From assembly GCA_030612505.1 (NCBI GenBank), contig JAUWNU010000001.1, forward strand, positions 1,233-65,232: DNA of 64,000 nucleotides, given 5' to 3'. The notes beneath the pieces are model-generated. The model made no database searches, was not told the origin of the DNA, and saw only the letters and a list, made by a program, of their open reading frames with translations. Source of the DNA: Methanomassiliicoccales archaeon. Its GTDB lineage: Archaea; Thermoplasmatota; Thermoplasmata; SG8-5. Both the position numbers and the translations under genes were made by a program. This document shows, piece after piece, positions 2,321-63,895 of the stretch (position 1 is its first letter; the number at the start of each line of letters is the position of its first letter).

Positions 2321-2387
2321 TGTTTCTATTGATGCTACAAATGTCCTCAAAAGATATTTAAAGGGGAGAATACAATATAATAAAACA

Positions 2388-2395
2388 AAAGAGGT
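2388..2395 (+). promoter_or_regulatory. Shine-Dalgarno site GAGGTGAG, 7 nt upstream of the FG-GAP protein start. Similar GGAGG sites precede the starts at 1576, 8392 and 10390.
   Basis: Complementary to the archaeal 16S 3' end CCUCC. Recurs at consistent spacing before several genes. Confidence 0.6.
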
Positions 2396-2401
2396 GAGAA
2401 G

Positions 2402-8383: not shown

Positions 8384-8391
8384 GGTGACCG

Positions 8392-28961: not shown

Positions 28962-29115
28962 TTTAGGGTCTAGCTTAATTAACTCTGATAATGGGTCTAG
29001 GGTCTGCGTTTAGTCATCGTTATTAAGGGTCTGTGCTTAATTATCGTTAGTTAGGGTCTTTGTTTAATTATCGTTAGTAAGGGCCTATGCTTGGCTATCG
29101 TTAGAGAGGGGCTAG
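28962..29115 (+). repeat. Tandem array of about 5 copies of a 27-bp repeat (consensus AGGGTCTNTGNTTAATTATCGTTAGTT) followed by hairpin GTTGAACGCaagGCGTTCGAC
   Basis: Head-to-tail units with no spacers, visible directly in the sequence. The same family occurs at 12859-13078 and 63751-63895. Confidence 0.8.
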
Positions 29116-40990: not shown

Positions 40991-43900
40991 TCAGGGTGGA
41001 ACAGTGAACTCCCATGTATAGTCTAATACATTACCATAAATGTCCTCTGCAACTATTTGACAGACCACAGTAGTTCCAGGAGCAAAACCTGCTTCGTGAT
41101 AGTATGAAACATTGTAACCGTCTGTGATGGGATCTAAATCGTAGAAAACAGAGAATGCGCTGACGTAAAGCCGGATAGTGCTTACTTCCACTCCAAACAT
41201 GTCTGTTATATGAATTGAAATTACAGGTGTTGTATTGGTCGATGCTCCATCTGGTGGAGGATATTCATTTGAATGCTGAGGTGGAATTGTATCGCTTATC
41301 ACAGTCCAAGTGCAGTTGTCTGTGACTTTCACCCAATAACCTTCACCGGCAGTCATTGTGACTGTGGTCAGATCGTAAACATCTCTTATGAGCATTGGTG
41401 CTGTGGAATCATAAACAGCTATACTTCCTACAGGTAATCCAGATAATGCGTCAGAAGCTAGTCTGTCATTGTATGAAGGATAGCCCACAAGGTTATAACC
41501 ATAGTACAAAGGTATCTCAGTAATTATAGGTTTACTTCCCATTACTGCCAATGTAGTATTAGCCGTTGCATGTATCCAAATACCCATTGTATGGTTAATG
41601 TATAGCAGGTTATTTTGATATTCTGGCTTATAGATGTTATAAGATTTCCAATAATCTAATCTTGTATCAAACCACCTTGCACGATCCCACTCGCCTTCTA
41701 TAGTGTAGAATGCAGACCGGATGTATGGATCGAATTGTATATTAGGCAGGGAAATCAGGTTCCAGCCTTCGTGCAATGGTAATAGGAAAGGTTCACTTAA
41801 TATGATTATTACTTCCTTGCTTTGGTTCATATATGCGTTTGGTGTGGCATAACCTATAAGGTTCTCATACGTTGCAGTTGCATAGTGGGGTGTGCTGAGT
41901 GTTCTAGTAATTGAATTCTCCACATATTCTGTACAGATAACCCAGTTAGTTCTTCCATTAATATTCGTGGTTCGTAATTCAACTAAATTGTGAGATGTAT
42001 CATTCACCCAAACGGTTGCATTAGAAGTGGGCTCAAGAGACTCATAGAGAACTTTTACATGGAGGAACCATTGGACTGTAAGATTTGATGAAGCATCCCA
42101 GTATATTGTATTGGTCTTATTGAAGGTTGTATTTAGAGAAACTGGGTGGGAGTCACCACCAATGCTGAAGTCATAACCGGTACTATTTGTAATAGTGGAA
42201 TTTACTATCAGGAAAGAGGAATCATAACAATAGATTGCATCGTTTACAGTGTCTGAAATAATGTTGTTTCTGAGTTCGGTTCTCAGAACGTATTTTATAT
42301 TAATATTCTCCAATACGATTTTTCCCTGCTCGTCAACACTGACATTCAGAGGTATAGTGACATCCCCTAAACCTGTACCTGATACTCTACTGTTCAACAA
42401 GCTTACTAATCCATTGTCTGTTTCATTGATGAAAACGATTTCATTAAATTCACCACTATACACCCAATCCTCAACACCATCATCTCCAATGTCAAGCTTA
42501 ACATTGCTTGAGAAAATGTCATCTCCAAATATTCTCATGTCAACAAAATGAATGTGTGTTGTTTGTTCTTCTTCACACATTTCTTGCCAGGCTACTATGT
42601 TTCCATGAATTGATTGACTAGGATTTGGGCTAATACCTGCTGTCAAAGAAAGAATGGTTGTATTACCATCAGATATGTCATATATGGCAACTCCAAATGG
42701 TCCAGGAACTGCATTGATTATCTGGTAAACTACTTTATCGCCCCAGATTTCCGGTTGCACATTATTATGAGCATTCGTAATCTTAACAGTCTCATTGTTG
42801 GAAAGATTGAACACATAGATATTCCACCAGTTATCCGATGTGACACCATCTTTGTCGCTTTGCCAAGCTATAAAATTATTATGGATACTTGGGGATGTGT
42901 TGATGGTTCCACTGCCAAGTGGGGTAATCCATTTTTCACTGTCATCTCCTCCACCATCTTCAAACACACCATTTAGTCCAAGGTCATATAAGTATATTGC
43001 ATATTCCCAACCTAGATATTTGTGCCATACAATCTTATTCCCAAAGATACAAGGAGCATCATCAATTTCAAGATTATTTGTTATTCTAGTCTCTTCGTTT
43101 GATGTCAGATTATACATATAAATTTCATAATTTCCGTCGCGAGAATCACGCCACACAACTTTATCGTTATGTATACTAGTAGAATAACCTCTGGAAACCT
43201 TGTTGGATAGTTCGGTTACAATATCTGCCGAGATATTATAAGAATATAGGTGATTTTCATATATCCAAACATATTGATCATCCCAAAGAGCACCTTGTAT
43301 TGCCATAATGTTACTTCCCACATCCACTAGATACTCCTCTTCCATAGTTGAAATATTGTAAGTAAAGAGGCTATAAACTCCTTCCCGTTTATCTAACCAG
43401 TATACTCGGTCTTCCCAAACATGTGCATAATGTTGACCCATTCCCGCTGGATTAGAAACTACTTCTACACTAGTTCCTAATGATTCTCCTGAAATCACGA
43501 AAGTTGACTCATCCAAAATAATGGCCCTGTTTGGAACAGTGAGTGTTGGTAGGGGATTAAGATACGACTCTGGATTGAAAAAGCCGAAATCTCTTTTTCT
43601 ACTCCCATCAGAAAGGCAATTTATTGAAAGTTCTGGAGAATAACTAGAATTTTCAAAATATACACCATAACCATTGATTGAAATGATATTATTTGCTATA
43701 TAAGGACCTGATGAACGGGAATATATTCCGTATGCTATGTTCTGGGAGATATTGTTGTTCATAATCGATGGATGTGAGCTATCACAAAATATACCATAGT
43801 TGTTCAATCTTATATTGTTCCCTGTTATATTCATTGGTTCTTCGTTTGAGTTTATGTAGATACCATAACTAAACAAAGATATTGTATTGTTCTCTATGGT

Positions 43901-46900
43901 AGTTTTTGCTGTTCCGTATATGCCTATTCCTCTTTGGGTTCCGGTTCCAGTGATGTTGTTCTCTTGAATTACAGGATAACATGTATAGGTGGTTGAGGTG
44001 GATCCATAAGCATACACTACATGCCCTGTTCCAGATTGTATGAAAGTATTGTTCTTAATGTTCGCTAAGCTATCGTAGCAGTAAATGAGGTTGGATGAGC
44101 TTCCAGAGATATTATTATGGGAAATAGTTGTTGGTCGTTTACCTCCATACATATAGATACCATAGGTGTTGCTTGAGAATATATTGTTGTAACTTATTGA
44201 CGGCCAAGAAGCAAAGAGATAGATGCCATAGGTGTTGCTTGAGGAAATATTGTTTCTTATTACCTCAGTACTAGAAGACCATACCATATAGCAACCATAT
44301 CTGTTTAGGAGTATATTGTTGTCTTCAACGATGGCATGACTACCTTGATCTCTTATACCAGCACCGGATGTATAACCGTATCCATTTGAAGTTATGTTAT
44401 TACCAGCGATTGTTGCACCAGAAGATTGTATATATATCCCACAATTATCATTTGAAGTTATGTTGTTTCCGCTAATTAATGACGTGTCGGATGAAGTACT
44501 CTTAATGCCAACCAGATTTAACTGAATTGTATTGTCGGTTATTGTGCTCTGAGACCACCATCCAGTAAGTATCCCGATGCCATCGTTGGAATTTATATGG
44601 TTCCGTGTTATAATCGCCATTGAACGTATCACAAATATTCCTTGATAATTCAGGGAGATTGTATTGTTATCGACTGTTGAAAGTCCACCTCCCTCTAAAT
44701 ATATTCCACGCACATTGTTTAAAGATATGTTATTGCCATCTCTTAAGACAGGGGACGCCGAGTTGCTATATACTCCATAATTAGTGTTTGAAATAATTGT
44801 ATTACCGATTATACTTGGGCTGGCTAAGATAGCCACAGATATACCGATAGTGTTCCAACCTATGTCATTGTTCTCTATAGTAGGGGCACTGTTATTTACA
44901 TAAATACCTCGTGGGTTTGAGCTTATATTGTTATTGTTGGCGATAATCAATGATGTGGCTGCCTCATTTATTTGTATTCCGTCATTCCAGTTATAATTGA
45001 TATTGTTTGCTTCAATATTTGAGGAACTATCTTTTCCAACCACGATGCCATGATAATTGTCTGTAAGGTTGTTTTTTGTAATATGGGGCGAAGAGTCACC
45101 AATAACAACTATCCCTGACCCTACATCGAAATCAAACATTACAACGAATTTGAAATATTCACCGGAATTATCATCGATAGCAATATTATCAGCAACATCT
45201 TTTGACTGAACCGCAAAATAGTATGTTACACCATGAAGCAAATTCGTAAGAAATACAATGTGGGCTGTGGTCTTTCTCGGGTTCGAAGCTGTTGTTAAGG
45301 GAGGTACATTGTCACCCCAAATTACCGTGCTGTCACTACTTTCGTCAGTGTCCCAGGTGATTGCCACAGTGCCATATGATAATCTTGTGACTGCAATATT
45401 GGAAATAATGGGCATCGTATCGTCGATAATAGCTGTGTCAATAGCTGTTGCCGGACTGCCTGTTCCATCATCTGCATCTTCATATTCAACAGTTATTGTG
45501 TCACCTGATTTTACCTGTAATATATTGTCTGGAGGATTTGAATCTCCATACTCCAATGTCGCACTGCCAGTAAAGTAACTGGAGCCTGAGACCGTCTCTG
45601 TCAAAGTGGACTGTAATAAATCTCCGGTTGGACTGCTCGCGAGGTTAATCATTATGTTTGGTATTGCTGTCAAGTCCGCATCGACCAAGTTTATTCCTGC
45701 TGTTGAGTTTGACTGATATGCCGTTTTATCAAATTCAACAATGCCTTTGCTTGTAGGTGTCCCGTGATAGTTCAGAACAATGGCATAATCCTGGTCAATC
45801 GCAGATGTGGCAGAAATACTATCCTCTAACAAACTTACGGCAATTACTCTTACTATGTAAGTTCCCACCAAAAGCTCCGAAGGATTGATGTACACACATT
45901 CTATATTGTTTATATCATCGTTTTGAATCAGAGATGAATCTGACCAACCGTTTGAAAATTGATTGCCATAATATACCGTACCATCAGGTGCAATCACATC
46001 AAGATCCAGGTTGTTTACCAAGGTCTTAGCTGCATTCGGCGAGCCTGGAGGATCTGTCCAGGCCATTGTGATCTTGAGCGGCTGGGTTGTATCTGTTACT
46101 GTGACCTTATACTCTTGCCATTGTCCGTTTTCCAATAACTGATGGTCATCATGTGTTATTGTGCCTACTGGCTCAAGGGCATTTGTCAGATTCATTCTAC
46201 CCCATCCCTCATTTCCGTTTGGTATATCTGGAGTGCCAATATCATCTGCACTGTTTATCAATACTGCCTTTATCATAGCCGGGCTCGGATCTACTCCGTA
46301 GAGATTTCTGTAGTATTCAATAAACAACGCGGCTCCGCCTGCGACATGTGGACATGCCTGGCTAGTACCTGAACACCACTGATAATCATCATCTATGTTT
46401 TGGTATCCTGCTGCAACCAGGCTTGGGCTTCCATCATGAGTTTGTAAAGAAGCAATCCATGTTCCAGGTGCGACAATGTCTGGTTTAATTCTTCCATCAT
46501 CAGTAAGCCCTCTGCTACTGAAGTAGGCAATTTCATCTGGGTTATCTGCTGCACTGCTCCCCTCTAGTCTGTAATTTTCTGATGCACCCACAGTGATTAC
46601 GTTTTTTGCATTCCCAGGGCTTCCTGTAGAACCTGCACCAGCACTACCTTCATTTCCTGCAGCAAATATCATAGTGTATTCTTGATCTCCAGCAGTATCA
46701 TTGTCAGCGTCTCTAACAAGGGCATCGAATTCAGCATCGTCTAGAGTGTACGCCCCATAACTCCTACTTCCCCAACTGTTACTACCTAGCACTGCTCCAC
46801 GAATAAAAGCATCTTTCACTAATTCTTGATTTGATGGGCCTTCCCAGGAATCTGAATCGCCAAATATCCTCTGAGCCAATATTTTGGCATTTGGTGCAAC

Positions 46901-49900
46901 ACCTAATCCATACAGATAGCTGTTGGTGTCTGTTGTTCCAATTGAAGCGTTACCAGCTACAATCCCTGTACAATGTGTTCCATGTCCATTGATATCTTCA
47001 GCAACACCATCTGTATCATCATCTTCTGTATAGTCAATATATCCTAATACTCTGCCTCGCAGATCTTCATGCATTGTTCCATTTACACCTGTATCGAGAC
47101 CTGTATCAACAATAGAGATATTCACGCCAGTTCCATTGTATCCTAGGCTATTTACATAAGAGCCATAACCTGGGAAAGAGCCGCCAACTATTTCATCAGA
47201 AACTTCGTCAAATATCTCAGGAACCATATAAGGCTCAATCCAATATACCTCCGGAATATGTGCAACTTTTGATACAATATCAGAGTTAATCTGGATTCTC
47301 ATATTGTAATAATCTCTAAATTGCCATTCCTTTAGAACCACGTTGCTCAAAGAAGTGACTTCTGCGACTATATCAGATACAGCATCAGTATTCATTATCA
47401 TAACAGTGACATTTGTAGAATTTTGGAGGTTTCTATTGATTTTTGAGCTGATTTTGTAAGCTGGTTGATATAGGCCGCACCACTGAATGAAAGGCAGATT
47501 TTCCACGCTGGTTTTCGTTGTCTCGTCCATCATTACACCAAATGCATTACTTGGTACAGAGTCATAGACTGTCGCACCTAACCCCTCAATCTGCTCTATC
47601 ATTTCATTTGTAAGAGGTTCGGAGAACTGGACAAGATACAACCCATCAACCCCCGGCGGATAAGCTTCGATTTTAAGATCACTTGAAATTAACGGTTCAC
47701 CTTCAATTGTATCAAATGAGATGGAATCCAGTGATATTTGAGTTTGAGATTGCGGTCTTCTATTGAGTAATTGAAGAAGTGCTGGTGAAGAAAAGATGCT
47801 ACCGCCTGAACCGGGCAATCCTTTTCCACTGTATGTTGTAGCAGAAACAAAGTTATCCGAGATGTATGGCGATCCACCAGAGACAACAATTCCTGCTTGC
47901 CCATTGAAAGTTATTGTGTTTCCAATAATCGGTACGTTAGACAGAATCGAGCTTACTCCAAACCCGGTATTAAATGAGATGTTATTATTGGCAATTTTCG
48001 TGTATTCTGAGAGTAAAAATGGAACTGAAACAGGATTTGCTTTTGAGGATCCTACGAAGATTGTGAATGTTTGGTACGCATCGTTCAGCCACAGATCGAA
48101 AGTCACCGTGCCACCAGTTATGTTAAAGTCCAATGAATCCTCACCGCTTCCTTCATTCATGTTAAAAGATGTCGGATTGCCTATTCCTGCAGTATCGCCT
48201 TCTCCTGTCTCAAAGTCGAAGTAGTTCAAATTCGTAAAGCTCTCGCTTGCAGTTATTGTTCCGTTGAAGTAATCTGTACCTCCGTCGCCACTCATTCTCA
48301 AATGCCAACCAGCATTGTCATGCCAGATGAAATAGCCCACATCTGTTCCGGGAATGTATGTCGGCTCACCATAGGGACTGATCATATTATGGACGCTGGT
48401 GCCATTTCCCTGATTATATTGAATTGTATTGTTTACAATCCTTCCGATGGACGAATCCAGGTATATTCCTTCACCAACATTGTCTTCTATCAGACAATTT
48501 TCGATTATGGGGCTGCTCATGCCCTCGACAAAGATACCGTGCCCGAGGTCTGCCTTGGTCACATTGCTGTTCATGATTGTTGGAGAGGAATCTTTGACGT
48601 AGATGTTGTGTGTGGTTCCTTCCATGATTTTACTGCCAGCGATATTTACTTTACTTCCTTCAAGTGCCTGGATGCCTCCTGGTTTGCTGAGGTCTGAAAT
48701 ATCGCCCCACATCCACCGAACAGAACTGTTATCCGTGACGTTGAGCCACGAATTAGTGAAAAACTTGTATGAAAGAGATTCTTGTTTTGCAACGATAATA
48801 GACCGATCTAAGATATCAAAACTTCCACCATGATTGAGTTTTATCTTGAGCGGTGATTCTAATGGGTCAATCCTGTCTATTCTCAATGTGACATTATCTT
48901 CGAATATCAGTCGTCCGGTAGAATTGATTATCAAATCTCCGCCAAGACCGTATCTGTCCTGCAATCTTATCTCCACATTATTGTATCTCTCTTCTGTGTC
49001 CACGTAATGCGTCGAGTTCCACCAGATAGTTCCACCAATCACCCACACACCTTCCCTGATGACATTATCGCCTTCATTTGCCTCGCCGATTTTGTTCTCG
49101 GGGTCTATGTGAATGTTCAGATAATGGGGGCCTCTGGTCTCGGGAGTCCATTCAAATGTAACAAAATCTTCGGAACCGCTCTCTATCTTGCTGATGGTGG
49201 ATGAGGATAAAAGCGTCTTATCTCCGTTCTCTAATTCATCGTATATATCTACTTGAACATCCTTGGCAGATACTATTCCAGCATTGCTCACGGGAATTTT
49301 TATCCAGCTTGGTTCGCCCTTGATCAAATCGCCTTCTATCTCAATGTATTGTGGTATCGCTGTAAGGTCTGGTGGAAATATCAATCTGGTTTCATCTATC
49401 TTCACAATCGCCCACGTGCCAAATATCTCCGGCAATCTTCCCTTTATCACATAATCTCCTATCTCATCTTTTGTTTCGAGAAGAAGTTCTTCACCAGCTT
49501 CTAAGAAAGCTTGTATATCTTTGTCTTCTGCCAGATTCTTCATTGCAGTTTGATATTTGTTGAGAGCAAGTGAAAATTTATTGTCGATAATTCCCCACCA
49601 ATTATCTCTGCCGAGTTGAATTGTACCTGTAACTCTTATCTCGGCAATGCTTTTCTCCGCATTTGCGATATCTTCAGACATAGGATTATCGACCATTACA
49701 TCTGTAGTTTCAATCAAGTTGTTAATCATAGACCAGACTTCCAGTATCAACATATCTGCGTCTGCCTCGTTGATTGTTCCCTGCTTCTCAAGCAAGGATA
49801 TCTTGTCTACTACCAAAAAGGCAGAATCAACCGCGTGATTTAATGTATTAACTGCCTGTGCTGTCTTCCCATTGTCATAGAAATTATCAGCGAGATTCAA

Positions 49901-50917: not shown

Positions 50918-51062
50918 CTAAATTCCTCCCGACAACAAGATGACTAAAAAACGCCCCCTAACCTGACCCTGATGATGTTATACATGCAAAAAACTTTCTA
51001 TGAAAAAACAGCATGTTAAAAAGTAATATACTGGAAACGATAGAAAATCTAATTAAGAAGTT

Positions 51063-54000: not shown

Positions 54001-54605
54001 TGAATTACAAAAATGAAAGTGATGTAAATTTCATCCAAGTAACAATGAATCCTGGCTATTGGTTTGAATTGCCCGCTCATTTTCTGCCAACAATAATCGA
54101 GTATTATATTCAGGCTTTTGACATATCTGGCAACGAGGCAGCAACACAAACTTACAGCTTGGAAATAATTGACCCATCTGTTCCAGATACAATGCCACCA
54201 GAAGTATTGCTAGCAACTCCGACAGGAGATAATTTTCCCATCTCAACGAGTATTTCAGTTGTGTTTAGCGAATATATGAATACGACCTCTGTGGAAGGTG
54301 CAATATCGATTTCGCTAGACATTTCCTTTAGCAGTTCATGGGCTAATAATCAAACTTTAGTTCTATCATTCACTGGCAACCTTTCTTACGACACTACTTA
54401 CACAGTTACAATAGATTCGGGAGCAAAAGACCTGGCAGGAAATACTTTGGCAAGCGATTATTCGTGGCAGTTTACGACATTAGGTGAACCAGAGGTAGTA
54501 CAACCCACAGCATCTAATGATTGGGGCTGGATTGGGATTATAATCTTTCTGATTTCGTTTATTGCTTTAATTCTAATTCATGGAGTTTACAAAGAGGAAT
54601 TGTGA
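51063..54605 (+). CDS. Surface protein paralog 1 (1180 aa): signal peptide, 7 Asp-box (BNR) propeller blades, Ig-like domains, Big_5 domain, C-terminal TM anchor
   Basis: Asp-boxes SEDAGRTWTE, STDNGETWS, STDGGKTWNS, SLDGGSIWEA, SFDDGQTWNG and SFDGGVTWQS. Big_5 segment PPEVLLATPTGDNFPISTSISVVFSEYMNTTSV. Ends GWIGIIIFLISFIALILIHGVYKEEL. Confidence 0.85.
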   Translation: MSYIHYMCGKRVSVILSIILVIILILPVVNLSANKPEQKPTPKMNPVNNEAFGFPPGWSDDIQLTFIPGLGSNVRASMITNRDVIHIVWENMTDGHIGYCRSEDAGRTWTEPRIITSGNVAGNPRIAINGSHIHVVYEKDTGFTSEIMYQNSTDNGETWSLPVMLSLNDGVWCAIPDIAVDGDNIHAVWEDEDASGPGIYEIIYRNSTDGGKTWNSQVQLTNYPGGSDASAKIAINESVVHVVWGRFVTATGSFETMYRRSLDGGSIWEAEMQITKPGSGHSYAPDLAVNGSNVYAIWMDSRDGSWETYINTSFDDGQTWNGEIRLTDVDGRNSFGAHVGVWNETVYVVWGDPRDDYPYPEAHEAYMNYSFDGGVTWQSSNERLQFALNNSGPNDIALTENYIHVVMKDNRTGKREIYYKRYPDFQTDTTAPSIVHTPIPNTPIGQLINITAKVSDNVALSEVWLNYTGINGTNYNVSMTGWDQKKVMVSGLGQTLYAQDGNYSFEIPAQNGVGVVSYYIWAEDVEGNFKNSPWGGSYFVQVTGPPSIEVTNPVGGEIWTGGSNHQIEFTASDSEDDPANLTVFLNYTSGAGGAIAILQGNQTPYSWTLPTINAIDVKVNATVVDRDGNKAYGDSEMFEIDTSLPEAVSTMPANGTTGVFIYQSVVIQFNEPMNTSTVTAAQTGGIDPGSWSWFWNVDKDTITGIHDAWSRGDIIEITVQPNYKDDSDQGNANSTSCVFSFTTETNPSPEIVHTNISSPQELGDEIRINATITDDSTVMNAVLWWQDIDGVWHENYMSKNGDDWEYWIPGQMAEGKISYQINATDDLQQKNTTIIYEFNVEDTTPPVIVHTPVESVLINESINITCQVSDLGGANASAVYLFYKCAGETDYTQVTMNPGFWYEIPAQSIPTTIEYYLLASDFYGNNASTSLYSFDVIDTSIPDTTPPVIAHTPVESAVIGESINISCQVIDLDGVDIVYLNYKNESDVNFIQVTMNPGYWFELPAHFLPTIIEYYIQAFDISGNEAATQTYSLEIIDPSVPDTMPPEVLLATPTGDNFPISTSISVVFSEYMNTTSVEGAISISLDISFSSSWANNQTLVLSFTGNLSYDTTYTVTIDSGAKDLAGNTLASDYSWQFTTLGEPEVVQPTASNDWGWIGIIIFLISFIALILIHGVYKEEL

Positions 54606-54674
54606 GTTAGTCTCTTTTCAATCATTAGTGAATCCGAGCGGATTCGCATTCGGCGGTAAGAACGCTTACTACTT

Positions 54675-55229
54675 TCATCCAAATTCATCCAATTCTTCTT
54701 CCGGTGGCGGGACATCTTCTGCAAATTCATCAATGGGCGCGGAGAATTCCGATAAATTATCTGGAGTGCCCTCGGTAGACAAAAGACTCTCAGTTGATGT
54801 TATTTTAGAGTCCTGGCTGTTGAAATGTAAATCCAATTTAGTCCCGAATCCTATACGTTCAACAATAAATGTTTCATAAATTGTGGTGTCATCATTAACC
54901 GCAGTAATCTGGATAGTGTCTCCAATTTCATAGCCGCTCGGCAATTCTTCTAAATCACATTCATATGCACAAGTCTCATAGACATTTGCCTCAAGCGTCT
55001 CAGTGGTTCTAAGGTTTTCAATTGCAATCTCAACATCGTAAACAGGATTGCCGTTCTCGTCATAGATTTGCCCATAAAGCACATAAGGCGGTGTCGGCAC
55101 TCCTTCATTTTCTGCCACTCCCTGCGCCTGAGCGGTTGAGAATGCACTGAATATGAACAGTGCCACAATTAAGCTCGCAATAGTCTTTGTTCTAGCCCCC
55201 ATGATATTTGATTTTGTATTTTTCGTCAT
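54675..55229 (-). CDS. Secreted CarboxypepD_reg-like domain protein (184 aa), a truncated paralog of the giant protein's N-terminal module
   Basis: Signal ASLIVALFIFSAFSTAQAQG. YGQIYDENGNPVYDVEIAIENLRTTETLEANVYETCAYECDLEELPSGYEIGDTIQITAV aligns with the first 180 residues of the 40991-50917 protein. Terminates after the acidic linker PPPEEELDEFG. Confidence 0.75.
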   Translation of the reverse strand: MTKNTKSNIMGARTKTIASLIVALFIFSAFSTAQAQGVAENEGVPTPPYVLYGQIYDENGNPVYDVEIAIENLRTTETLEANVYETCAYECDLEELPSGYEIGDTIQITAVNDDTTIYETFIVERIGFGTKLDLHFNSQDSKITSTESLLSTEGTPDNLSEFSAPIDEFAEDVPPPEEELDEFG

Positions 55230-55405
55230 TTTCCTACCCCCTGATATGATGGTTAATATTGCAAGGGCAATCGCATTGGTGAGATATAAAATCTTGTGAA
55301 TGCACGATAATATTGTGTAAAGAAAAAGGATGTTTTTATGACGAAAACCTATAGTTTGTAGTTAAAGAGACAAAAGTATTTTAGGAATGATGCGAATGGA
55401 GATTT

Positions 55406-58400
55406 GTGTTGAAAAAATCGATAGGAAGAAAACGGCAGATCTTTCTAGTATCTGCAACTACATTCGTAATCATTACCTTGTTATTGAGTTCTATGGTAGT
55501 TATAATTTTCCCTCAAAATACTGCCAAACAGATTGATAATGTGATTAATACATTTCCACCGGGTTGGACAGATGACATTCAAATGACCCTCTTAACAGAA
55601 TTGGGCTCTCAAATAAGACCCGCTCTTGCATCTGAAGGAGAGGTTATTCATTTAATCTGGGAAAATAGGTCAAGTATCCATAAATTGGAATATAGACGAA
55701 GCAATGATGCGGGAAGGACATGGACAGAAACTAGAATGATTACTTCGGGGGAAGTGGGTAATCAGAAAATAGCCATTAATGGATCTCAGATTCATGTCGT
55801 TTATGAAAAGGACTTTGGTATCGGTTTAGAAATAGTATATCAAAATAGTACGGACAACGGGGATACCTGGAATGCTCCTGTGATGTTAACTCCCAATGAT
55901 GGAATTTGGACCCAGCTCCCTGATATTGCGGTTATCAATGACACGATTCATATAGTCTGGGAAGATGAAGGCACAAGTGCTCCTGGAAGTTGTGAAATAT
56001 TCTATCGCAACAGCACAGATGGAGGAATATCTTGGAATCCAACGATTCAACTCACAAATTACCCTGGGGGGTCAGATACCGAGGCAAAAATCGCTGTTAA
56101 CGGCTCTATAGTTCATATAACCTGGGGTAGATTTGTTACGGGGACGGGGACGTTTGAAGCAATGTATCGACGAAGCCTAGATGGAGGTTCAACCTGGGAG
56201 GCAGAAAAGCAGATAAGCCTACCAGGATCTGGACATTCTGAGCCTAGCGACCTCGCCGTGAATGGCTCCAGCGTTTACACAATATGGATGGACAGCAGGG
56301 ATGGATCGTGGGAGACATATATTAACTCCAGCTTTGATAACGGCCAGACTTGGAATGGCGAAATGAGACTGACCGATGCCGATGGTCGGAACTCATTTGG
56401 CGCACATGTTGGTACATGGGATCAAACTGTTTATGTTGTCTGGGGAGACCCAAGAGACGATTATCCGTACCCAGAAGCGCACGAAGCGTACATGAACTAC
56501 AGTTTTGACGGCGGTGTAACCTGGCAGAGTTCGAATGAAAGATTACAATTTGCCCTGAATAATTCCGGGCCTGGTGACATTGCCCTAACAGAAAACTCTG
56601 TACATGTAGTCATGACAGATAATAGAACAGGAAAAAAGGAAATTTATTACAAACGTTATCCTGATTTCCCAGCAGATATTGCGTCACCATCTATAATCCA
56701 TACACCCACCTCAAGCACACCTATAGGCCAATCAATCAATATCACAGCCAAAGTTACTGATAATGTGGCCCTCGCAGATGTCTGGTTGAATTATACCAGC
56801 GTGAATGGGACAAATAACAATGTTTCTATGACTGGCTGGAATCAGAAAGAAGTCATGGTCTCGGGGTTGGGACAAACACTCTATGCCCAGGATGGTAATT
56901 ATTCGTTTGAGATTCCTGCTCAGCAAAGTGCTGGTGTCATGAATTATTATATTTGGACAAATGATACCAGTGGAAATGAAAACTGGATTGGGACTTATCA
57001 GGTTCAAATTTTTGACATGACCAAGCCAATAATCAATCATGTTCCTGTAGCTTCTTCAAAAATAAACGAGCCGATTGATATAGGTGTAAATGTGACTGAT
57101 AACGGCGAGGTTGCGAATGTAACTCTATACTATGAAAATGTGGGCGTTACGACCTATACAGCCGTTGACATGACTCCCGTATCCGGCAATTGGGCTGCAA
57201 CAATCCCAGCACAAAATGAAACTGGCTTGGCTCATTACTTCATATGGGCGAACGATACGTCTGGGAATAATGTAACTGATCCATTAATGGGAAGCCATGC
57301 GGTTCAGATAACTGGGCCCCCGAGCATTGGGGTTACAAATCCAGTAGGTGGTGAGGATTGGACTGGCGGGAGCAAGCATTTGATAGAGTTTGTTGCGTCT
57401 GATACTGAGGATAATTCCGAGAATTTGACGGTGTTCCTGAATTATACATTTACTACTGGCCAAGGTGATATTGCCATCTCGATAAAAGGGGATGAATCTC
57501 CATATCTTTGGACGTTGCCAAATATCGATGCGACTGATGTTGTTGTAAATGCCACAGTTGTTGATTCTGATGGGAATAAAACCTATGATGATTCGCCAAT
57601 ATTTACGATAGATTCTTCACCGCCAGAAGTAATTTCGACTAATCCAGTAAATAATACAACAGGTATTTCTATTTTCCAGCCGATAGTAATTCAGTTCAAT
57701 GAAAAAATGAATATATCTTCGGCTGTTGTAAATCAAACGAATGGTACTGACCCTGGTGGTTGGTTTTGGTTCTGGAATCAGGACAAGGATACAATTACAG
57801 GGATTCATGATGCCTGGCTCAGAGGAGATAATGTAGAGATAACAGTCCAGATAGGATACAAGGATGATTCTGAACCTGGAAACATCAATAACACTGCTTA
57901 TGTTTTTTCATTCACAACTGAAACAAACCCTTCGCCTGAGATAAACCATATGAATATTTCAGTCCCACAGGAATTGGGTGATGCAATAAGAATTAATGCA
58001 ACAATCACAGATGATGGCACAGTGATGAACGGTGTTCTTTGGTGGCAGGATGTTGATGACATCTGGCATGAGAATTATATGGATAAAGATGGTGATGATT
58101 GGGAGTACACCATACATGCTCAAATGGCTGTGGGTAAAGTCAAATATCAAATCAATGCAACCGATGACTTTGAGCAGAAAAATTCAACTATTATTTACGA
58201 GTTCGATATTAGAGATTCAACGCCTCCAGTTATTATCCATACGCCTGTTGAAAGTGCAGTTATTGGTGAGGCGATAAACATCACCTGTGAGATTATTGAT
58301 TTAAGCGAGGTGAATATAGCATACATGACATCTGGGGTGTTTTTTGTTTACAGATACGAAGGCGACACTGGCTTCACATATGGAGTGATGAACCCGGGTT

Positions 58401-58957
58401 ATTGGTATGAATTACCAGAACATTCTGCGCCAGCCACAATCGAGTATTACATCCAGGCATCTGACATTTATGGCAACGTTGCTTCAACACAACTTTACAC
58501 TTTAGAAATAATCGCCCCATCTTTCCCAGATACTATACCGCCAGAGATATTGCTCGCAACTCCAACTGGTGATAATATTCCAATATCAACGGAGATTTCA
58601 ATAGTGTTTAACGAAGCTATGAATCAATCTTCCGTGGAAAACGCAATCTCGATTTCACCGACAATAACTGGTATCAGTTACACGTGGCTGAACAATCAGA
58701 CATTAGTTATTGATATTTCAGGTATTCTTTCATACAATTCAACTTACACAGTTATGATAGATACAGGAACAAAAGACCTGGCTGGAAATACTTTGGAGAA
58801 CGATTATTCATGGCAATTTACGACGGTTGAAGAACCGGAGATTATTCAACAACCAGCGTCAAATAATTGGGGGTGGATTGGGATTATTATATTTTTGGCT
58901 ACAATAATAATGTTGATGTTGTTCTATCAGTTTAACAAGGAAAAAGAGCTGGAATAA
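55406..58957 (+). CDS. Surface protein paralog 2 (1183 aa), same architecture as 51063-54605
   Basis: Asp-boxes SNDAGRTWTE, STDNGDTWN, STDGGISWNP, SLDGGSTWEA, SFDNGQTWNG and SFDGGVTWQS. C-terminal GWIGIIIFLATIIMLMLFYQF anchor. Confidence 0.85.
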   Translation: MLKKSIGRKRQIFLVSATTFVIITLLLSSMVVIIFPQNTAKQIDNVINTFPPGWTDDIQMTLLTELGSQIRPALASEGEVIHLIWENRSSIHKLEYRRSNDAGRTWTETRMITSGEVGNQKIAINGSQIHVVYEKDFGIGLEIVYQNSTDNGDTWNAPVMLTPNDGIWTQLPDIAVINDTIHIVWEDEGTSAPGSCEIFYRNSTDGGISWNPTIQLTNYPGGSDTEAKIAVNGSIVHITWGRFVTGTGTFEAMYRRSLDGGSTWEAEKQISLPGSGHSEPSDLAVNGSSVYTIWMDSRDGSWETYINSSFDNGQTWNGEMRLTDADGRNSFGAHVGTWDQTVYVVWGDPRDDYPYPEAHEAYMNYSFDGGVTWQSSNERLQFALNNSGPGDIALTENSVHVVMTDNRTGKKEIYYKRYPDFPADIASPSIIHTPTSSTPIGQSINITAKVTDNVALADVWLNYTSVNGTNNNVSMTGWNQKEVMVSGLGQTLYAQDGNYSFEIPAQQSAGVMNYYIWTNDTSGNENWIGTYQVQIFDMTKPIINHVPVASSKINEPIDIGVNVTDNGEVANVTLYYENVGVTTYTAVDMTPVSGNWAATIPAQNETGLAHYFIWANDTSGNNVTDPLMGSHAVQITGPPSIGVTNPVGGEDWTGGSKHLIEFVASDTEDNSENLTVFLNYTFTTGQGDIAISIKGDESPYLWTLPNIDATDVVVNATVVDSDGNKTYDDSPIFTIDSSPPEVISTNPVNNTTGISIFQPIVIQFNEKMNISSAVVNQTNGTDPGGWFWFWNQDKDTITGIHDAWLRGDNVEITVQIGYKDDSEPGNINNTAYVFSFTTETNPSPEINHMNISVPQELGDAIRINATITDDGTVMNGVLWWQDVDDIWHENYMDKDGDDWEYTIHAQMAVGKVKYQINATDDFEQKNSTIIYEFDIRDSTPPVIIHTPVESAVIGEAINITCEIIDLSEVNIAYMTSGVFFVYRYEGDTGFTYGVMNPGYWYELPEHSAPATIEYYIQASDIYGNVASTQLYTLEIIAPSFPDTIPPEILLATPTGDNIPISTEISIVFNEAMNQSSVENAISISPTITGISYTWLNNQTLVIDISGILSYNSTYTVMIDTGTKDLAGNTLENDYSWQFTTVEEPEIIQQPASNNWGWIGIIIFLATIIMLMLFYQFNKEKELE

Positions 58958-58996
58958 GCTATCCCCAGATATTCCATCAACGCTTTCTCTCGTTCT

Positions 58997-59932
58997 TTAA
59001 TATTTCTGGCAAGTTATCTTGTCTATTAGAAATGGAACTGTTAATACCACGATTTCACTGTGCGCGATGTTGTTGGTTTCATCTGCCTCATAAAATATCT
59101 CATCTGGGTCAACCACTGCAAAGATTATATGTTCTCCTTCAAAACCAGTGCTGTTCCAGTTCAAAGAGGCGGCCATTGGTTGAGAAAGTCCGTGGAATGA
59201 AGACATACAAGTTCCGATATGATTGGCTTCGCCTACGAGATTCAAATAGAAAGAAACATTGACATCAGGAGTACCCCGATTGGCGGTTATCACAGCAGTG
59301 ACAGTAACTATTTCACCTTCTTCTGGTCTGATATTTGAAAAACTGACACCTCTTACAGACAGGTCTTGTTCAATTCCAATATTATCTAACTCTTCTTCCG
59401 ATGGCTGGGCATCTTCTGGATATTCATCAATAGGCATGGAGAATTCTGATAAAGAATCTGGAGAACCCTCGGTAGACAAAATGCTATTCGATGCTGCTAT
59501 TTTAGACTCCTGGCTGTTGAAATATAAATCCAATTTCTTCCCGAATCCTATGTGTTCAACAACAAACGTTTCATAAATTGTGCTGCCGTCACTAACCGCG
59601 GTAATCTGGATAGTGTCACCGAGTTCATAACCGCTAGGCAATTCTTCCAATATACATTCATACGCACACGTTTCATAGACCTCTGCTTCAAGCGTCTCAG
59701 CGGTTCTCAGATTTTCAATAGTAATGTCCACGTTGCATATCAAATAGCCATCTCCATCATGGATAAAACCATAAACATCAAAAGGTGGTATCGGAGCACC
59801 ATTGTTTCCAGTCATTCCTTGTGCCTGAGCTGTCGAGAACGCACTGAATATGAACAGTGCCACAATCATACTCGCAAAAATCTTTGTCTTATTACCCACT
59901 TCCACACCGTTTCTCTCTATTTCTGTTGTCAT
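58997..59932 (-). CDS. Secreted CarboxypepD_reg-like plus CARDB protein (311 aa), a paralog of the giant protein's N-terminal 300 residues
   Basis: About 85 percent identical to residues 1-300 of the 40991-50917 protein, including the CARDB motif FAVVDPDEIFYEADETNNIAHSEIVV. Ends 39 bp from the convergent neighbour. Confidence 0.8.
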   Translation of the reverse strand: MTTEIERNGVEVGNKTKIFASMIVALFIFSAFSTAQAQGMTGNNGAPIPPFDVYGFIHDGDGYLICNVDITIENLRTAETLEAEVYETCAYECILEELPSGYELGDTIQITAVSDGSTIYETFVVEHIGFGKKLDLYFNSQESKIAASNSILSTEGSPDSLSEFSMPIDEYPEDAQPSEEELDNIGIEQDLSVRGVSFSNIRPEEGEIVTVTAVITANRGTPDVNVSFYLNLVGEANHIGTCMSSFHGLSQPMAASLNWNSTGFEGEHIIFAVVDPDEIFYEADETNNIAHSEIVVLTVPFLIDKITCQKY

Positions 59933-60098
59933 TTGAAATCCTCCTAACCTTATGGTGACTAAAAATCCGTCCCCCGACCTGACTGAGATATTGTCATAAG
60001 TTTAAAAAACTATCTTATAGAAAAACAACATGTTAAAAAATATTATGCTTGAAAGATAGAAAACATAATTATAGAAGTTACGAGTTATATTCGTTAAC

Positions 60099-63000
60099 AT
60101 GTATGGGAAAGGAAGAGTGCCGGCTATTCTATCGCTTATTCTTGTTATCATCCTTACTTTACCTGTTCTGAATCTTTCGGCTAGTGATTCAGAACCAAAT
60201 CCAATTCCAACGGCAGAACTAGTAAATAACGAATCTTTAGGTTTTCCTTCAGGTTGGACTGACGACATTCAAATGACACTCTTACCTGGATTGGGAACCC
60301 ATGTATGGCCTGTTATTGCAACAAATGGAGATACAATCCATCTCGTATGGGAAAATAGGACTAGTACTCATAGTATAGGATATAGACGTAGTGAAGATGC
60401 AGGAAGGACTTGGACAGAATCTAAAATAATAACTTCTGGAGAAGTAGGTAATCCAAGAATAGCTATTAATGGCTCTAATATCCATCTTGTGTATATGCAA
60501 GACACCGGCATCACATCTGAAATCATGTATCAGAATAGCACTGATAATGGTGAGACATGGAGTTTACCTGTGATGTTGTCCCTCGATGACGGAGTCTGGT
60601 GTGCGATACCAGACATTGCTGTTGATGGCGATAACATCCATGTTGTTTGGGAGGATGAAGATGCAAGTGGACCCGGAAGTTATGAGATTATATATCGCAA
60701 CAGCACGAACGGAGGAATATCATGGAACCCGACAATCCAACTCACAAATTATCCTGGGGGGTCTGATGCATCCGCAAAAATCGCCGTTAATGGGTCTTTA
60801 GTTCATGTGGTCTGGGGAAGGTTCGTTACTGCTTCAGGCAGTTTTGAAACGATGTATCGCCGCAGCCTAGACGGAGGTTCAACCTGGGAGGCTGAAATGC
60901 AGATAACAAAACCAGGCTCAGGACATTCCTATGCTCCTGATCTCGCCGTGAACGGCTCCAGCATTTATGCAATCTGGATGGACAGCAGGAATGGAGCATG
61001 GGAGACTTATATCAACATTAGTTACGATGATGGTGTTTCATGGAATGGTGGTATTGCTTTGAGCGACATAGACGGAGAGTTTTCGTGGGTTCCAATAGTA
61101 GATGTCTGGAATCAAACAGTTTATGTCATGTGGACAGATCGAAGGGATGACTACCCTTATACCGATGCACAAGAAATCTACATGAACTACAGTTTTGACA
61201 GCGGCGTTACCTGGCAGGATGAAAATAAAAGATTGACATTAGCTCTAAACAATTCTGCTGTAAACGACATTGTGGTTACCGAAGACTATATACATGTAGT
61301 TTCTGTCGATAATAAAACAGGAAAACGGGAAATTTATTACAAACGGTATCCCGATTTCCCAGCAGACACCACACCTCCGACAATCATTCACACACCCATA
61401 ACTGGCACACCTATAGGCCAATCAATTAACATATCATGTCAGGTTTCCGATAATGTAGCGCTTTCTGAAGTATGGCTGAATTATACTGGTGTGAACGGAA
61501 CGAATTACAATGTATCAATGACTGGCTGGAACCTGAAAAAAGTCATGGTATCTGGGCTGGGGCAAACACTCTATGCCCAGGATGGTAATTATTCGCTTGA
61601 GATTCCCGCCCAAAATGGTGTGGGTGTGCTTAGTTATTTTATCTGGACAAATGACACAAGCGATAATGATAACTGGACTGTGACATATCAGGTTCAAATA
61701 TTTGACATAACCAAACCAACAATCAATCATGTTCCTGTAGCTTCTTCAAAAATAAACGAACCAATTGATATTGTTGTAAATGTGACCGATAACGGCGAGG
61801 TTGCAAATGTAACTCTATACTACGAAAATGTGGGTGATATAACTTACACAGCAGTTGATATGACTCTGATTTCTGGTGACTGGACTGCAACAATCCCTGC
61901 ACAAACTGTGACAGGCTTAGCCCATTATTTCATATGGGCGAATGACACATCTGGAAATAATATTACATCGCCAGTAATGGGAGATTATGCGATACAGATA
62001 ACGGGGCCTCCGAGCATTGATATTACTAATCTAATTGGAGACGAGGATTGGACTGGCGGTAGCAATCATCAGATTGAGTTTAGTGCAACAGATACGGAAG
62101 ATTCGCCTGCTGTTTTAGATGTGTTTTTGAACTATACTTCGAGTGCTGGCAACGGTGTTATCGCATCGATAAAAGGTAATGATTCACCTTATGATTGGAC
62201 GTTGCCAACTATTAACGCAACTGATGTTATAGTCAATGCTACTGTTATTGATTTGGATGGGAATAAATCATACGACGATTCACTGGAATTTATGATTGAT
62301 TCTTCACCGCCAAAAGTAATCTCCACCAATCCTGTTAACAACACAACAGGCAATTCTATCTTCCAGCCTATTGTTATTCAGTTCAATGAACCTATGAATA
62401 TTTCTTCGGTTACTGTCAATCAGACAAATGGTACTGACCCAGGGGGTTGGAATTGGTACTGGAATGAGGATAAAGATGTGATTACAGGCATTCACAATCC
62501 TTGGGAAAGGGGAAGATACATTGAAATGACCGCCCAGCCAAATTATTCTGATAATTCCAATCCTGGAAATTCTAACAACACAACCTATGTTTTCTCATTC
62601 ACAACCGAAACCAATCCTTCGCCTGAGATAATCCATACGAACATTTCAAGCCCGCAGGAATTGGGTGATGAAATGAGAATCAATACGACAATCACAGACG
62701 ATGGAGAAGTGATGAATGCTGTTCTTTGGTGGCAGGGTGTTGATGATGTCTGGCATGAGAATTTTATGGACAAAAATGGTGATGATTGGGAATATTTCAT
62801 ACCTGGCCAGGTGACAGAAGGAAAAGTAAAGTATCAGATAAATGCGACAGATGATTTACAACAGAAGAATACGACAATAATTTATGAGTTTGATATTGAG
62901 GATACGACACCGCCAGTTATTGTTCACACACCTGTTGAGAGTGCTGTTGTTGGTGAGGCGATAAACATAACTTGCCAGATTACTGATTTGGGTGGTGTGG

Positions 63001-63623
63001 ATGTTGTAAATCTATATTACAAAAATGAGAGTGCTTCAAATTTCACACAGGTAACTATGAATCAGGGTTATTGGTTTGAATTATCTGCTCAGACCGTGCC
63101 GAATACAATCGAGTATTACATACACGCTTTCGACATCTATGGCAATGATGTTGCAACACAAACTTACACTTTGGAAATAATTGATACATTTGTTCCAGAT
63201 ACCACACCGCCAAAGGTTTTGTTTGTTTCACCAACTGGCAATAATGTACCAATTTCTACGAGCATTTCAATCGTGTTTAACGAAGCTATGAATCAAACTT
63301 CTGTGGAAAATGCAATATCAGTTTCACCAACAATAACCGGTATCGGTTACACATGGCTGAATAATCAAACATTAACTATTGAAATATCAGGCAATCTAAG
63401 TTACAATACTACTTATACAGTTTCGATTGGCACAGGAGCAAAAGACCTATGTAGAAATACTTTGGAGAACGATTATTCATGGCAATTCACGACAGCAGAG
63501 GAACCTGAAATAGTACAAACGCCAGCGTCTAATGATTGGGGATGGATTGGAATTATTATCTTTCTGATTACGATAATAGTATTGTTAGTCCTGTCCCCAC
63601 AAATGCAAGATAAACCGAAATAG
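60099..63623 (+). CDS. Surface protein paralog 3 (1174 aa), same architecture as 51063-54605
   Basis: Asp-boxes SEDAGRTWTE, STDNGETWS, STNGGISWNP, SLDGGSTWEA, SYDDGVSWNG and SFDSGVTWQD. Big_5 segment. C-terminal GWIGIIIFLITIIVLLVL anchor. Confidence 0.85.
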   Translation: MYGKGRVPAILSLILVIILTLPVLNLSASDSEPNPIPTAELVNNESLGFPSGWTDDIQMTLLPGLGTHVWPVIATNGDTIHLVWENRTSTHSIGYRRSEDAGRTWTESKIITSGEVGNPRIAINGSNIHLVYMQDTGITSEIMYQNSTDNGETWSLPVMLSLDDGVWCAIPDIAVDGDNIHVVWEDEDASGPGSYEIIYRNSTNGGISWNPTIQLTNYPGGSDASAKIAVNGSLVHVVWGRFVTASGSFETMYRRSLDGGSTWEAEMQITKPGSGHSYAPDLAVNGSSIYAIWMDSRNGAWETYINISYDDGVSWNGGIALSDIDGEFSWVPIVDVWNQTVYVMWTDRRDDYPYTDAQEIYMNYSFDSGVTWQDENKRLTLALNNSAVNDIVVTEDYIHVVSVDNKTGKREIYYKRYPDFPADTTPPTIIHTPITGTPIGQSINISCQVSDNVALSEVWLNYTGVNGTNYNVSMTGWNLKKVMVSGLGQTLYAQDGNYSLEIPAQNGVGVLSYFIWTNDTSDNDNWTVTYQVQIFDITKPTINHVPVASSKINEPIDIVVNVTDNGEVANVTLYYENVGDITYTAVDMTLISGDWTATIPAQTVTGLAHYFIWANDTSGNNITSPVMGDYAIQITGPPSIDITNLIGDEDWTGGSNHQIEFSATDTEDSPAVLDVFLNYTSSAGNGVIASIKGNDSPYDWTLPTINATDVIVNATVIDLDGNKSYDDSLEFMIDSSPPKVISTNPVNNTTGNSIFQPIVIQFNEPMNISSVTVNQTNGTDPGGWNWYWNEDKDVITGIHNPWERGRYIEMTAQPNYSDNSNPGNSNNTTYVFSFTTETNPSPEIIHTNISSPQELGDEMRINTTITDDGEVMNAVLWWQGVDDVWHENFMDKNGDDWEYFIPGQVTEGKVKYQINATDDLQQKNTTIIYEFDIEDTTPPVIVHTPVESAVVGEAINITCQITDLGGVDVVNLYYKNESASNFTQVTMNQGYWFELSAQTVPNTIEYYIHAFDIYGNDVATQTYTLEIIDTFVPDTTPPKVLFVSPTGNNVPISTSISIVFNEAMNQTSVENAISVSPTITGIGYTWLNNQTLTIEISGNLSYNTTYTVSIGTGAKDLCRNTLENDYSWQFTTAEEPEIVQTPASNDWGWIGIIIFLITIIVLLVLSPQMQDKPK

Positions 63624-63750: not shown

Positions 63751-63895
63751 GACCCTGAACCCTAGACCCTCTCTAACGATAACCAAACACAGACCCTCAA
63801 TAACAATAACCAAACACAGACCCTTACTAACGATAATTAAACGCAGCCCCTTACTAACAACAATTAATCATAGCCCCTATATTAGAGCATAAAAT
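63751..63895 (-). repeat. Tandem array of about 4-5 copies of the 27-bp repeat family in reverse orientation (CTCTAACGATAACCAAACACAGACCCT units)
   Basis: The reverse complement matches the 28962-29115 consensus AGGGTCTGTGTTTGGTTATCGTTAGAG. Confidence 0.75.

Follow-up and report, generated by a model that had tools for sequence, protein, structure and literature searches.

A three-unit tandem array built from the 5′ part of a giant protease gene and its propeller neighbor in a Thermoplasmata archaeon

Introduction

How does a locus come to hold one large surface protein in three versions, each beside a partner gene that begins alike but ends at a different length? The question is raised by the last 23 kb of a 64,000-nucleotide (nt) stretch of DNA (herein the window) from a Methanomassiliicoccales archaeon (NCBI GenBank assembly GCA_030612505.1, contig JAUWNU010000001.1, positions 1,233 to 65,232 of the forward strand). 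A reading of the letters and open reading frames (ORFs) of this stretch (herein the original prediction) described a three-fold array of divergent gene pairs, in which a minus-strand gene with a recurring N-terminal module, giant in the first unit and short in the other two, faces a plus-strand gene for a membrane-anchored propeller protein. It attributed the pattern to repeated segmental duplication and proposed that a small secreted CARDB protein and a large anchored propeller protein, kept together in every copy, may be a two-component surface module or a substrate for surface variation. Here we define the duplicated units and their breakpoints, weigh whether the short ORFs are genes or relics, and describe which partners are kept together in related genomes.

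Results

Architecture of the array

Six ORFs make up the array, and every one lies at exactly the coordinates originally predicted (all positions refer to the window). From left to right they are G3308 (40991-50917, minus strand), a giant of 3308 amino acids (aa); B1 (51063-54605, plus strand, 1180 aa); S184 (54675-55229, minus strand, 184 aa); B2 (55406-58957, plus strand, 1183 aa); S311 (58997-59932, minus strand, 311 aa); and B3 (60099-63623, plus strand, 1174 aa). Self-comparison of the region from 40 to 64 kb by blastn resolved three homologous units (50007-54557, 54678-58915, and 59022-63572), which are 70-81% identical at the nt level with E = 0. Positions 50007-52625 match 59022-61646 at 80.8% over 2.6 kb, 50360-50872 match 54678-55190 at 79.8%, and 55553-58915 match 60243-63584 at 75.0%; other segments of B1, B2, and B3 share 70-76% nt identity. 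At the protein level, B1-B3 share 69-73% aa identity with one another, and the three N-terminal modules share 68-82%. The units lie head to tail with a colinear order in all three, and their joints cut the flanking giant gene, the arrangement that characterizes tandem segmental duplication.

A contig that was assembled independently (ENA ERZ4219663 NODE_486, 28.8 kb; herein L001) carries the six genes in an order identical to that of the window's 68.7-kb contig and differs from the window by 1 mismatch in 22,920 nt (99.996% identity). It also shows what closes the array, a convergent topoisomerase I gene beyond B3. The predicted three-fold array of a divergent pair is thus borne out both by self-comparison and by a second assembly with the same structure.

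The short ORFs and the breakpoints

The three minus-strand genes begin alike and end differently. S184 consists of a signal peptide, a β-sandwich, and an acidic linker, and stops ahead of CARDB; S311 consists of the same three elements and the first CARDB domain. The original prediction had placed the complete module, CARDB included, in all three genes; the common N-terminal part is indeed found in each, but S184 ends in the acidic linker and has no CARDB. The Pfam labels given to the module hold unevenly. CARDB (PF07705; cut-off 22.7 bits) is above threshold in G3308 (two domains, 74.4 bits), but in S311 it scores just below (21.1 bits), with 82% identity to the first CARDB of the giant, and the CarboxypepD_reg (PF13620) match of the N-terminal module is sub-threshold (16.9 bits; cut-off 32.3). 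In an AlphaFold2 (AF2) model of S311, the β-sandwich is confident for residues 48-140 alone (predicted local distance difference test score, pLDDT, about 80). A Foldseek search with this model gave no significant match (E of at least 0.002), the hits being generic transthyretin/CnaB-like sandwiches that include a teneurin carboxypeptidase-like domain.

Homology between S184 and the giant ends at 54678, adjoining the S184 stop codon, while that between S311 and the giant ends at 59022, the final 8 codons of S311 being junction sequence. The co-duplicated 5′ part of the giant gene spans 50007-50917 on the minus strand (codons 1 to ~303), of which 50360-50917 (codons 1 to ~186) is present in unit 2 too. 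This is the geometry expected of tandem duplication, with the left end inside the giant and the right end just past the propeller gene. Since the left breakpoints interrupt the giant gene, at codons ~186 and ~303, the short ORFs are its 5′ stubs and, judged by the alignment of the units, each closes at the first stop past a duplication joint. The same alignment confirms the origin that had been proposed: a segment holding the start of the giant gene and its neighbor was duplicated more than once. It was also correct that the 184-aa and 311-aa ORFs are intact, with stops of their own, beside a giant of 3308 aa that bears a protease domain.

Selection on the stubs

A stub is truncated from the duplication onward; a neutral one is therefore expected to show a ratio of nonsynonymous to synonymous divergence (dN/dS) of ~0.5 or more against the giant and of ~1 against the other stub. 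Pairwise estimates by the method of Nei and Gojobori (NG86) gave 0.19-0.22 for the giant and S311, 0.25-0.27 for the giant and S184, and 0.31-0.32 for S184 and S311. The CARDB part of S311 has a dN/dS of 0.11 against the giant at a dS of 0.73; the dS of the N-terminal part of the same pair is 0.28. Gene conversion resets divergence without lowering dN/dS. We simulated neutral stubs in 1000 runs, with the stub branch neutral and the giant branch strictly synonymous. The median pairwise dN/dS was 0.42, and the observed value was reached in 0/1000 runs for S311 and in 5/1000 for S184; the ORF remained open in 0.7-0.8% of the runs (P = 0.007-0.008).

The distribution of insertions and deletions (indels) gives a similar picture. 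Between units 1 and 3, the 910 coding nt of S311 align with the giant without a single indel, but the spacer of ~150 nt has five of 1 nt; several non-triplet indels separate the same two units downstream of the B stop codons. S184 has a single indel in 552 coding nt, of 6 nt and in frame. G3308, S184, and S311 all keep the start codon, a Shine-Dalgarno sequence of GGAGG type, and the core of the signal peptide along with its AQA cleavage site; the signal-peptide segment "LFIFSAFSTAQAQG" and the Shine-Dalgarno sequence are invariant across the three. On these sequence signatures, with dN/dS of 0.19-0.32 overall, no frameshifting indels, and a probability of ~0.007 that a neutral ORF stays open, the stubs are under purifying selection and not decaying, as the original prediction had supposed. 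Most likely, the stubs are expressed, each yielding a small secreted protein that corresponds to the N-terminal module of the giant.

Pairing in relatives

Related loci hold a large S8 or β-helix protein gene together with a gene for a BNR protein. At locus L076, a 3205-aa giant that is 43% identical to and colinear with G3308 (13-3203 vs 17-3206) has the same N-terminal module, is anchorless, and lies divergently opposite a 1528-aa BNR protein whose C terminus holds a transmembrane (TM) anchor; the pair is present in single copy. Divergent pairs are also formed by a 1709-aa S8/β-helix protein and a 1178-aa BNR protein (L006) and by a 1478-aa protein and a 1147-aa BNR protein (L012/L043). In four samples (L002-L005), a 3080-aa giant lies directly upstream of, and is co-directional with, a 1379-aa BNR protein. 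At L007, the S8 gene is followed by an inserted MULE transposase gene (L007 2935-4230) and then by the BNR gene, so the spacer can tolerate disruption. The large partners have no TM anchor, and the BNR partners carry a conserved "NDWGWIGIIIFL...KEK" anchor. Because relatives hold the giant and the BNR gene as a single-copy pair, the conserved pairing is that of giant with propeller, not of small protein with propeller.

Searches for the stubs point the same way. A word-indexed search of 5.8 billion clusters with S311 returned only S311 itself and S184, and an exhaustive profile search of 1.84 billion representatives found the N-terminal module only at the head of large proteins of 467-3205 aa (P0123, 3205 aa; P0132, 1451; P0136, 1690; P0140, 1221; P0155, 1565; P0144, 467). 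Several of these carriers are anchorless β-helix proteins that do not adjoin BNR genes. A candidate for a second small-protein pairing, a 267-aa ORF beside a BNR gene at L009 (1501-5566) that is 62% identical to the N terminus of the L006 protease, was rejected: the homology runs 13 codons beyond the stop of the ORF and then ends, and the TM anchor of the BNR protein is in another frame. The locus is a decaying version of the pair, from another lineage, in which this ORF is all that is left of the protease. The idea that a small CARDB protein and a propeller form a conserved pair is therefore not supported: no stand-alone homolog of the stubs came out of the searches, L009 is decaying, S184 lacks CARDB, and relatives pair a full-length large protein with the BNR protein.

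Another arrangement was seen in the sample that yielded L001. Locus L077 (ENA ERZ4219663 NODE_2642) encodes a 1451-aa anchorless β-helix protein with the same N-terminal module, divergent from a 1462-aa TM-anchored β-helix/PKD protein. This suggests a general gene arrangement of secreted partner plus anchored partner in the lineage.

The propeller proteins

B1-B3 share a signal-like N terminus, an Asp-box propeller, an immunoglobulin (Ig)-like stalk (Big_7 and two Big_5 domains), and, at the C terminus, a single TM helix followed by a short basic tail. BNR_2 (PF13088; cut-off 31.4 bits) scores 41.7, 38.0, and 42.9 bits in B1, B2, and B3, respectively. An AF2 model of B1 residues 37-444 has seven blades (pLDDT 89), and strict Asp boxes (S-x-D-x-G-x-x-W) number 6 in B1, 6 in B2, and 5 in B3. 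The predicted layout of seven Asp-box blades, Ig-like and Big_5 domains, and a C-terminal TM anchor is therefore correct in its domains and its number of blades, but only 6 canonical Asp boxes are present (5 strict ones in B3).

The closest solved structure to the B1 model in the Protein Data Bank (PDB) is the seven-bladed GH145 enzyme BT3686 (TMq 0.65), followed by PLL lectins and a PL42 lyase (about 0.6) and by sialidases (about 0.5). Sequence identity to solved structures is 11-18%, and the GH145/PL42 matches (TMq 0.59-0.65 at 11-16% identity) speak for the global fold only. Neither [FYWL]R[IVL]P, the FRIP motif, anywhere in B1-B3 nor R[IVL]P outside the signal peptide was found. Membership in the GH33 sialidases was rejected on the seven blades and the missing FRIP motif. 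Judged by the model, the propeller proteins most likely bind or cleave glycans, and the propeller, instead of acting as a glycosidase, may be a lectin-like binder. N-x-S/T sequons number 37 in B1, 40 in B2, and 48 in B3 vs 14-17 expected from composition (14 for B1), a 2.6- to 2.8-fold enrichment, and the three proteins are probably heavily N-glycosylated. The start of B1 is probably Met7 (ATG 51081); the gene called from there in the database encodes 1174 aa, and the start codon of B3 aligns with this ATG.

The stalks have changed by whole domains. B1 has a 303-nt Ig duplication of its own at about 53628-53930, absent from B2 and B3 and visible as an internal tandem copy (53585-53824 vs 53888-54121, 70% identity), but is missing the 291-nt Ig segment carried by B2 (about 56978-57277, ~97 aa) and B3 (about 61668-61967). 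Every indel in the B genes is a multiple of 3. Sliding windows along B1-B3 give a dN/dS of 0.04-0.40 throughout, and diversifying selection was rejected because no window exceeds 1. The dS of the B genes is about 1 or higher, with about 0.5 to >1 as the span for the paralogs, and the duplications are therefore old. Identity is patchy: B1 is nearest to B3 at aa ~120-300 (83-92%) and nearest to B2 at aa ~300-420 (88-92%), and B2 is nearest to B3 in parts of the stalk. Such a mosaic implies gene conversion among the B paralogs. Signals of the order of duplication disagree (the module of G3308 is nearest to that of S311, the 5′ halves of the B genes group B1 with B3, blades 6-7 group B1 with B2, and the 3′ halves group B2 with B3), a conflict that we attribute to gene conversion. 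The suggestion that the array is a substrate for surface variation accordingly finds a basis in the conversion mosaics and the Ig-domain indels, but not in any window of dN/dS above 1.

The giant protein

G3308 comprises a signal peptide, the N-terminal β-sandwich, an acidic linker, two CARDB domains, a Peptidase_S8 domain, many β-helix/NosD repeats, and a C-terminal domain of ~170 aa; it has no membrane anchor. The Peptidase_S8 domain (PF00082) covers aa 1262-1573 with 165.2 bits (cut-off 21.8), and its triad, D1273/H1317/S1524, is assigned by motif match only (VDTGLD at 1271-1276, HGTHC at 1317, and GTSQA at 1522-1526).

The ~170-aa domain, which has a terminal GYWV.V....W.V.W motif, lies at G3308 aa 3044-3216 (41269-41787) and recurs in the window at 31194-31688 and 32522-33046. 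It is common to several anchorless secreted giants, including the window ORFs 29826-31697 and 31775-37483, and is also C-terminal in proteins of L011, L076, and L077, standing at the extreme C terminus in relatives. It is a candidate surface-attachment or sorting domain.

Spacers and junctions

Each unit has a divergent spacer. Spacer 1 (50918-51062) holds the GGAGG Shine-Dalgarno sequence of the minus-strand gene and conserved A/T-rich boxes, which were read from the spacer alignment by inspection and are candidate archaeal TATA/BRE elements. Spacer 3 (59933-60098) is about 80% identical to it, with five single-base indels between the two; spacer 2 (55230-55405) is homologous to both, more diverged, and has several indels. 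The identity ranges are about 77-82% for spacers 1 and 3, in agreement with the homology that had been predicted for these two regions, and about 51-56% for spacers 1 and 2. The duplication joints are the convergent junctions B1/S184 (54606-54674) and B2/S311 (58958-58996).

Between the convergent stops of B1 and S184, a hairpin with a perfect 7-bp stem (GAATCCG-AG-CGGATTC, 54630-54645) could be either a terminator or what remains of the duplication joint. Two intergenic sites 35 kb apart (28999-29104 and 63764-63878) each hold ~4 tandem copies of a 27-nt repeat, in opposite orientation. The sites are about 80% identical over 118 nt and have no Rfam match; the second lies just downstream of B3, ahead of the convergent topoisomerase I gene.

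Host and remainder of the window

The window encodes a CDP-archaeol synthase and an archaeal-type AdoMet synthetase (MAT), and the named homologs of its proteins come from metagenome-assembled genomes (MAGs) of Thermoplasmata/Thermoplasmatota. MAT is 86% identical to that of "Thermoplasmata archaeon" and 77% identical to that of Ca. Proteinoplasmatales SG8-5; sister genomes encode a MAT that is 90% identical (P0272-P0275). By its protein sequences, the host is archaeal and belongs within Thermoplasmata. The window, in which we found no Rfam matches or tRNAs, is an island of surface-protein genes mixed with housekeeping genes.

Other very large secreted proteins are frequent in the window. Upstream (2402-10221) are a 1993-aa FG-GAP protein and a 609-aa protein with Ig/PKD domains, both secreted. 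ORF 31775-37483 (1902 aa) has nine Big_5 repeats, fn3, and a C-terminal caspase-like Peptidase_C14; its repeat region has a G+C content of 54-55% vs about 42% around it.

Discussion

We consider it probable that the array arose through lineage-specific tandem amplification of an ancestral divergent giant-propeller pair, and that the stubs were kept as genes. The ancestral pair would have consisted of an anchorless secreted S8/β-helix giant and a TM-anchored, seven-bladed propeller protein with an Ig-like stalk. Two old partial tandem duplications, each beginning inside the giant gene, crossing the promoter region that the divergent genes share, and ending shortly beyond the propeller gene, produced the three propeller paralogs and, as an automatic by-product, S184 and S311. 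Having kept a start codon, ribosome-binding site, signal peptide, and frame, the stubs would give rise to small secreted proteins. B1-B3 have been retained under purifying selection; they have swapped patches by gene conversion and gained or lost Ig domains. The outcome would be an enlarged and diversified set of anchored surface proteins beside a secreted protease, most likely serving the capture or degradation of extracellular polymers. The anatomy, the origin of the array by duplication with its breakpoints, the signatures of selection, and the retention of the giant-propeller pairing in relatives are shown by the data; stub expression, glycosylation, the biochemical role of the propeller, and any binding between the N-terminal module and the propeller proteins are inferred.

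Several observations weigh against this account. The terminal branch of S311 is short, with a dN/dS of about 0.49, a weaker constraint than that on the giant. The case for the stubs as genes is drawn from evolutionary signatures of only three paralogs, the NG86 estimates are noisy at dS of at least 0.7, and the uneven dS along the giant-S311 pair (0.28 vs 0.73) implies that gene conversion has blurred the history. The gene that follows L040, a B1-type ortholog with the 303-nt Ig duplication of B1 (76% nt identity), is another, co-directional BNR gene instead of an S184-like stub, so even this relative does not share the structure of the array. No stand-alone homolog of the stubs turned up in the other genomes searched, and any function of theirs would therefore be young and restricted to the lineage. 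For the propeller, the low identity to solved structures and the lack of the sialidase FRIP motif count on the same side.

Four other explanations were weighed. An array produced by the assembler, through collapse or expansion of repeats, can practically be dismissed: the contig is assembled from a metagenome and the repeat units are ~4.4 kb long, but units that are just 70-81% identical in DNA are far too diverged to confuse an assembler, so that artefacts of this kind are not credible, and the second assembly reproduces both order and junctions. We also regard it as quite improbable that the short ORFs are functionless pseudogene relics, riding with a promoter region that the B genes need, their frames intact by chance or by conversion from the giant. 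The stubs do finish exactly at the duplication joints, lack stand-alone protein homologs, and include one, S311, with a terminal-branch dN/dS of about 0.49; the uneven dS and the identity mosaics show that conversion occurs in the array, and the comparable stub of L009 sits in a decaying unit. Conversion, however, does not reduce dN/dS, and the CARDB part, which is unconverted, has a ratio of 0.11. The value of 0.31-0.32 between the two stubs compares with about 1 if both were neutral, and neutral runs seldom kept the ORF open or reached the observed ratios. Frame-breaking indels are abundant in the adjoining spacer and absent from 910 + 552 coding nt, and the start codon, Shine-Dalgarno sequence, and signal peptide were kept.

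If the stubs are genes, they could act through docking: the N-terminal module of the giant, a β-sandwich and a conserved acidic linker with or without CARDB, would tether the anchorless protease non-covalently to the neighboring membrane-anchored propeller, and S184 and S311 would be stand-alone secreted partners of B2 and B3, serving as caps, competitors, or adaptors. Every unit would then be a matched pair of small protein and anchor, in line with the original prediction, whose adaptor or chaperone role for the small protein is a possibility. This putative interaction of module and propeller is attractive because the giant and its orthologs are anchorless and their BNR neighbors always have the conserved C-terminal TM anchor, because the same module heads other anchorless secreted β-helix proteins (one of them, at L077, divergent from a TM-anchored protein), and because each stub still adjoins its own B paralog and shares a promoter region with it. 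The last point follows automatically from the geometry of the duplication and is not independent evidence. Docking is further weakened because the protease-BNR pairing outlives a change of N terminus, L006 and L012 starting directly with CARDB and without the β-sandwich, and because other carriers of the module (L077 and L078) are not beside BNR genes; no small stand-alone homolog was found elsewhere, and the S311 model is confident over a single stretch. We hold docking to be doubtful; if true, the locus would show in nature how a partial duplication can give birth to both a novel gene and a novel two-component surface module in archaea. A role of the units as donor cassettes for recombinational switching of the exposed propeller parts and the N terminus of the giant, like bacterial silent cassettes, appears very unlikely. 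The mosaic blocks record past conversion between units, and whole-domain indels occur in the Ig stalk, but all copies are complete, separately promoted, and under purifying selection with no dN/dS window above 1, and the paralogs are old (dS about 0.5 to >1). Between the two assemblies, which have the same structure, a single nt differs over 22.9 kb, with no sign of within-population shuffling, and neither a recombinase nor an invertible element was seen in the units.

Amplification of the giant-propeller pair has parallels elsewhere. The lpl lipoprotein cluster of Staphylococcus aureus is a set of tandem surface-protein paralogs whose unit of duplication is out of register with the ORFs (PMC2568036). 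Both loci hold diverged surface paralogs head to tail, in units made of part of a gene, an intergenic region, and a neighbor, with conversion or recombination among copies. Unlike the lpl cluster, the present array has a divergent pair as its unit, a left breakpoint that cuts a 3308-aa gene to leave 5′ stubs under purifying selection, an archaeal host, and three units only, all of them old. With the BNR/Asp-box propellers (PF13088, GH33, GH145 BT3686, and PL42), B1-B3 share the repeated S-x-D-x-G-x-T-W motif, BNR_2 scores above cut-off, and the fold of the AF2 model. GH33 enzymes have six blades and the B1 model seven; B1-B3 also lack FRIP and join their propeller to a long stalk of Ig-like domains and a TM anchor at the C terminus.

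Secreted S8A peptidases are reported to be common in sediment Thermoplasmata lineages (PMC9123169), and G3308 resembles them in its signal peptide, its Peptidase_S8 domain with intact D/H/S motifs, and its origin in a related Thermoplasmata MAG. It differs from the surveyed subtilases in that its S8 domain forms one part of a 3308-aa multidomain protein, alongside CARDB and many β-helix repeats, and in its synteny with an anchored BNR protein; the coupling of giant and BNR gene and its amplification are not described in that survey (PMC9123169). B1-B3 also recall archaeal S-layer-type glycoproteins in their signal peptide, large acidic β-rich/Ig-like ectodomain, sequon enrichment, and single C-terminal TM helix. 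Unlike these, they have a plain TM anchor without a PGF-CTERM/archaeosortase-type signal and show no sign of forming a lattice. To our knowledge, a propeller head is unusual among characterized S-layer proteins.

Tandem clusters of surface paralogs with ORF-crossing units, retained truncated duplicates, and the S8, CARDB, β-helix, BNR, and Big_5 families are already known. What is new is this archaeal locus, the conserved synteny of giant protease and BNR gene, and the evidence that two stubs have persisted as genes. Current understanding is not overturned; the growth of the family by partial duplication is fairly ordinary, and the chief value of the work lies in annotation and in the hypotheses it offers. 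The locus is a clean natural example of truncated gene copies lasting under selection after partial duplication, and it documents how an uncultivated, sediment-type Thermoplasmata archaeon enlarges its repertoire of surface proteins. The gene-order link between a giant S8 protease and an anchored Asp-box propeller is a hint as to how such archaea may hold extracellular enzymes at the cell.

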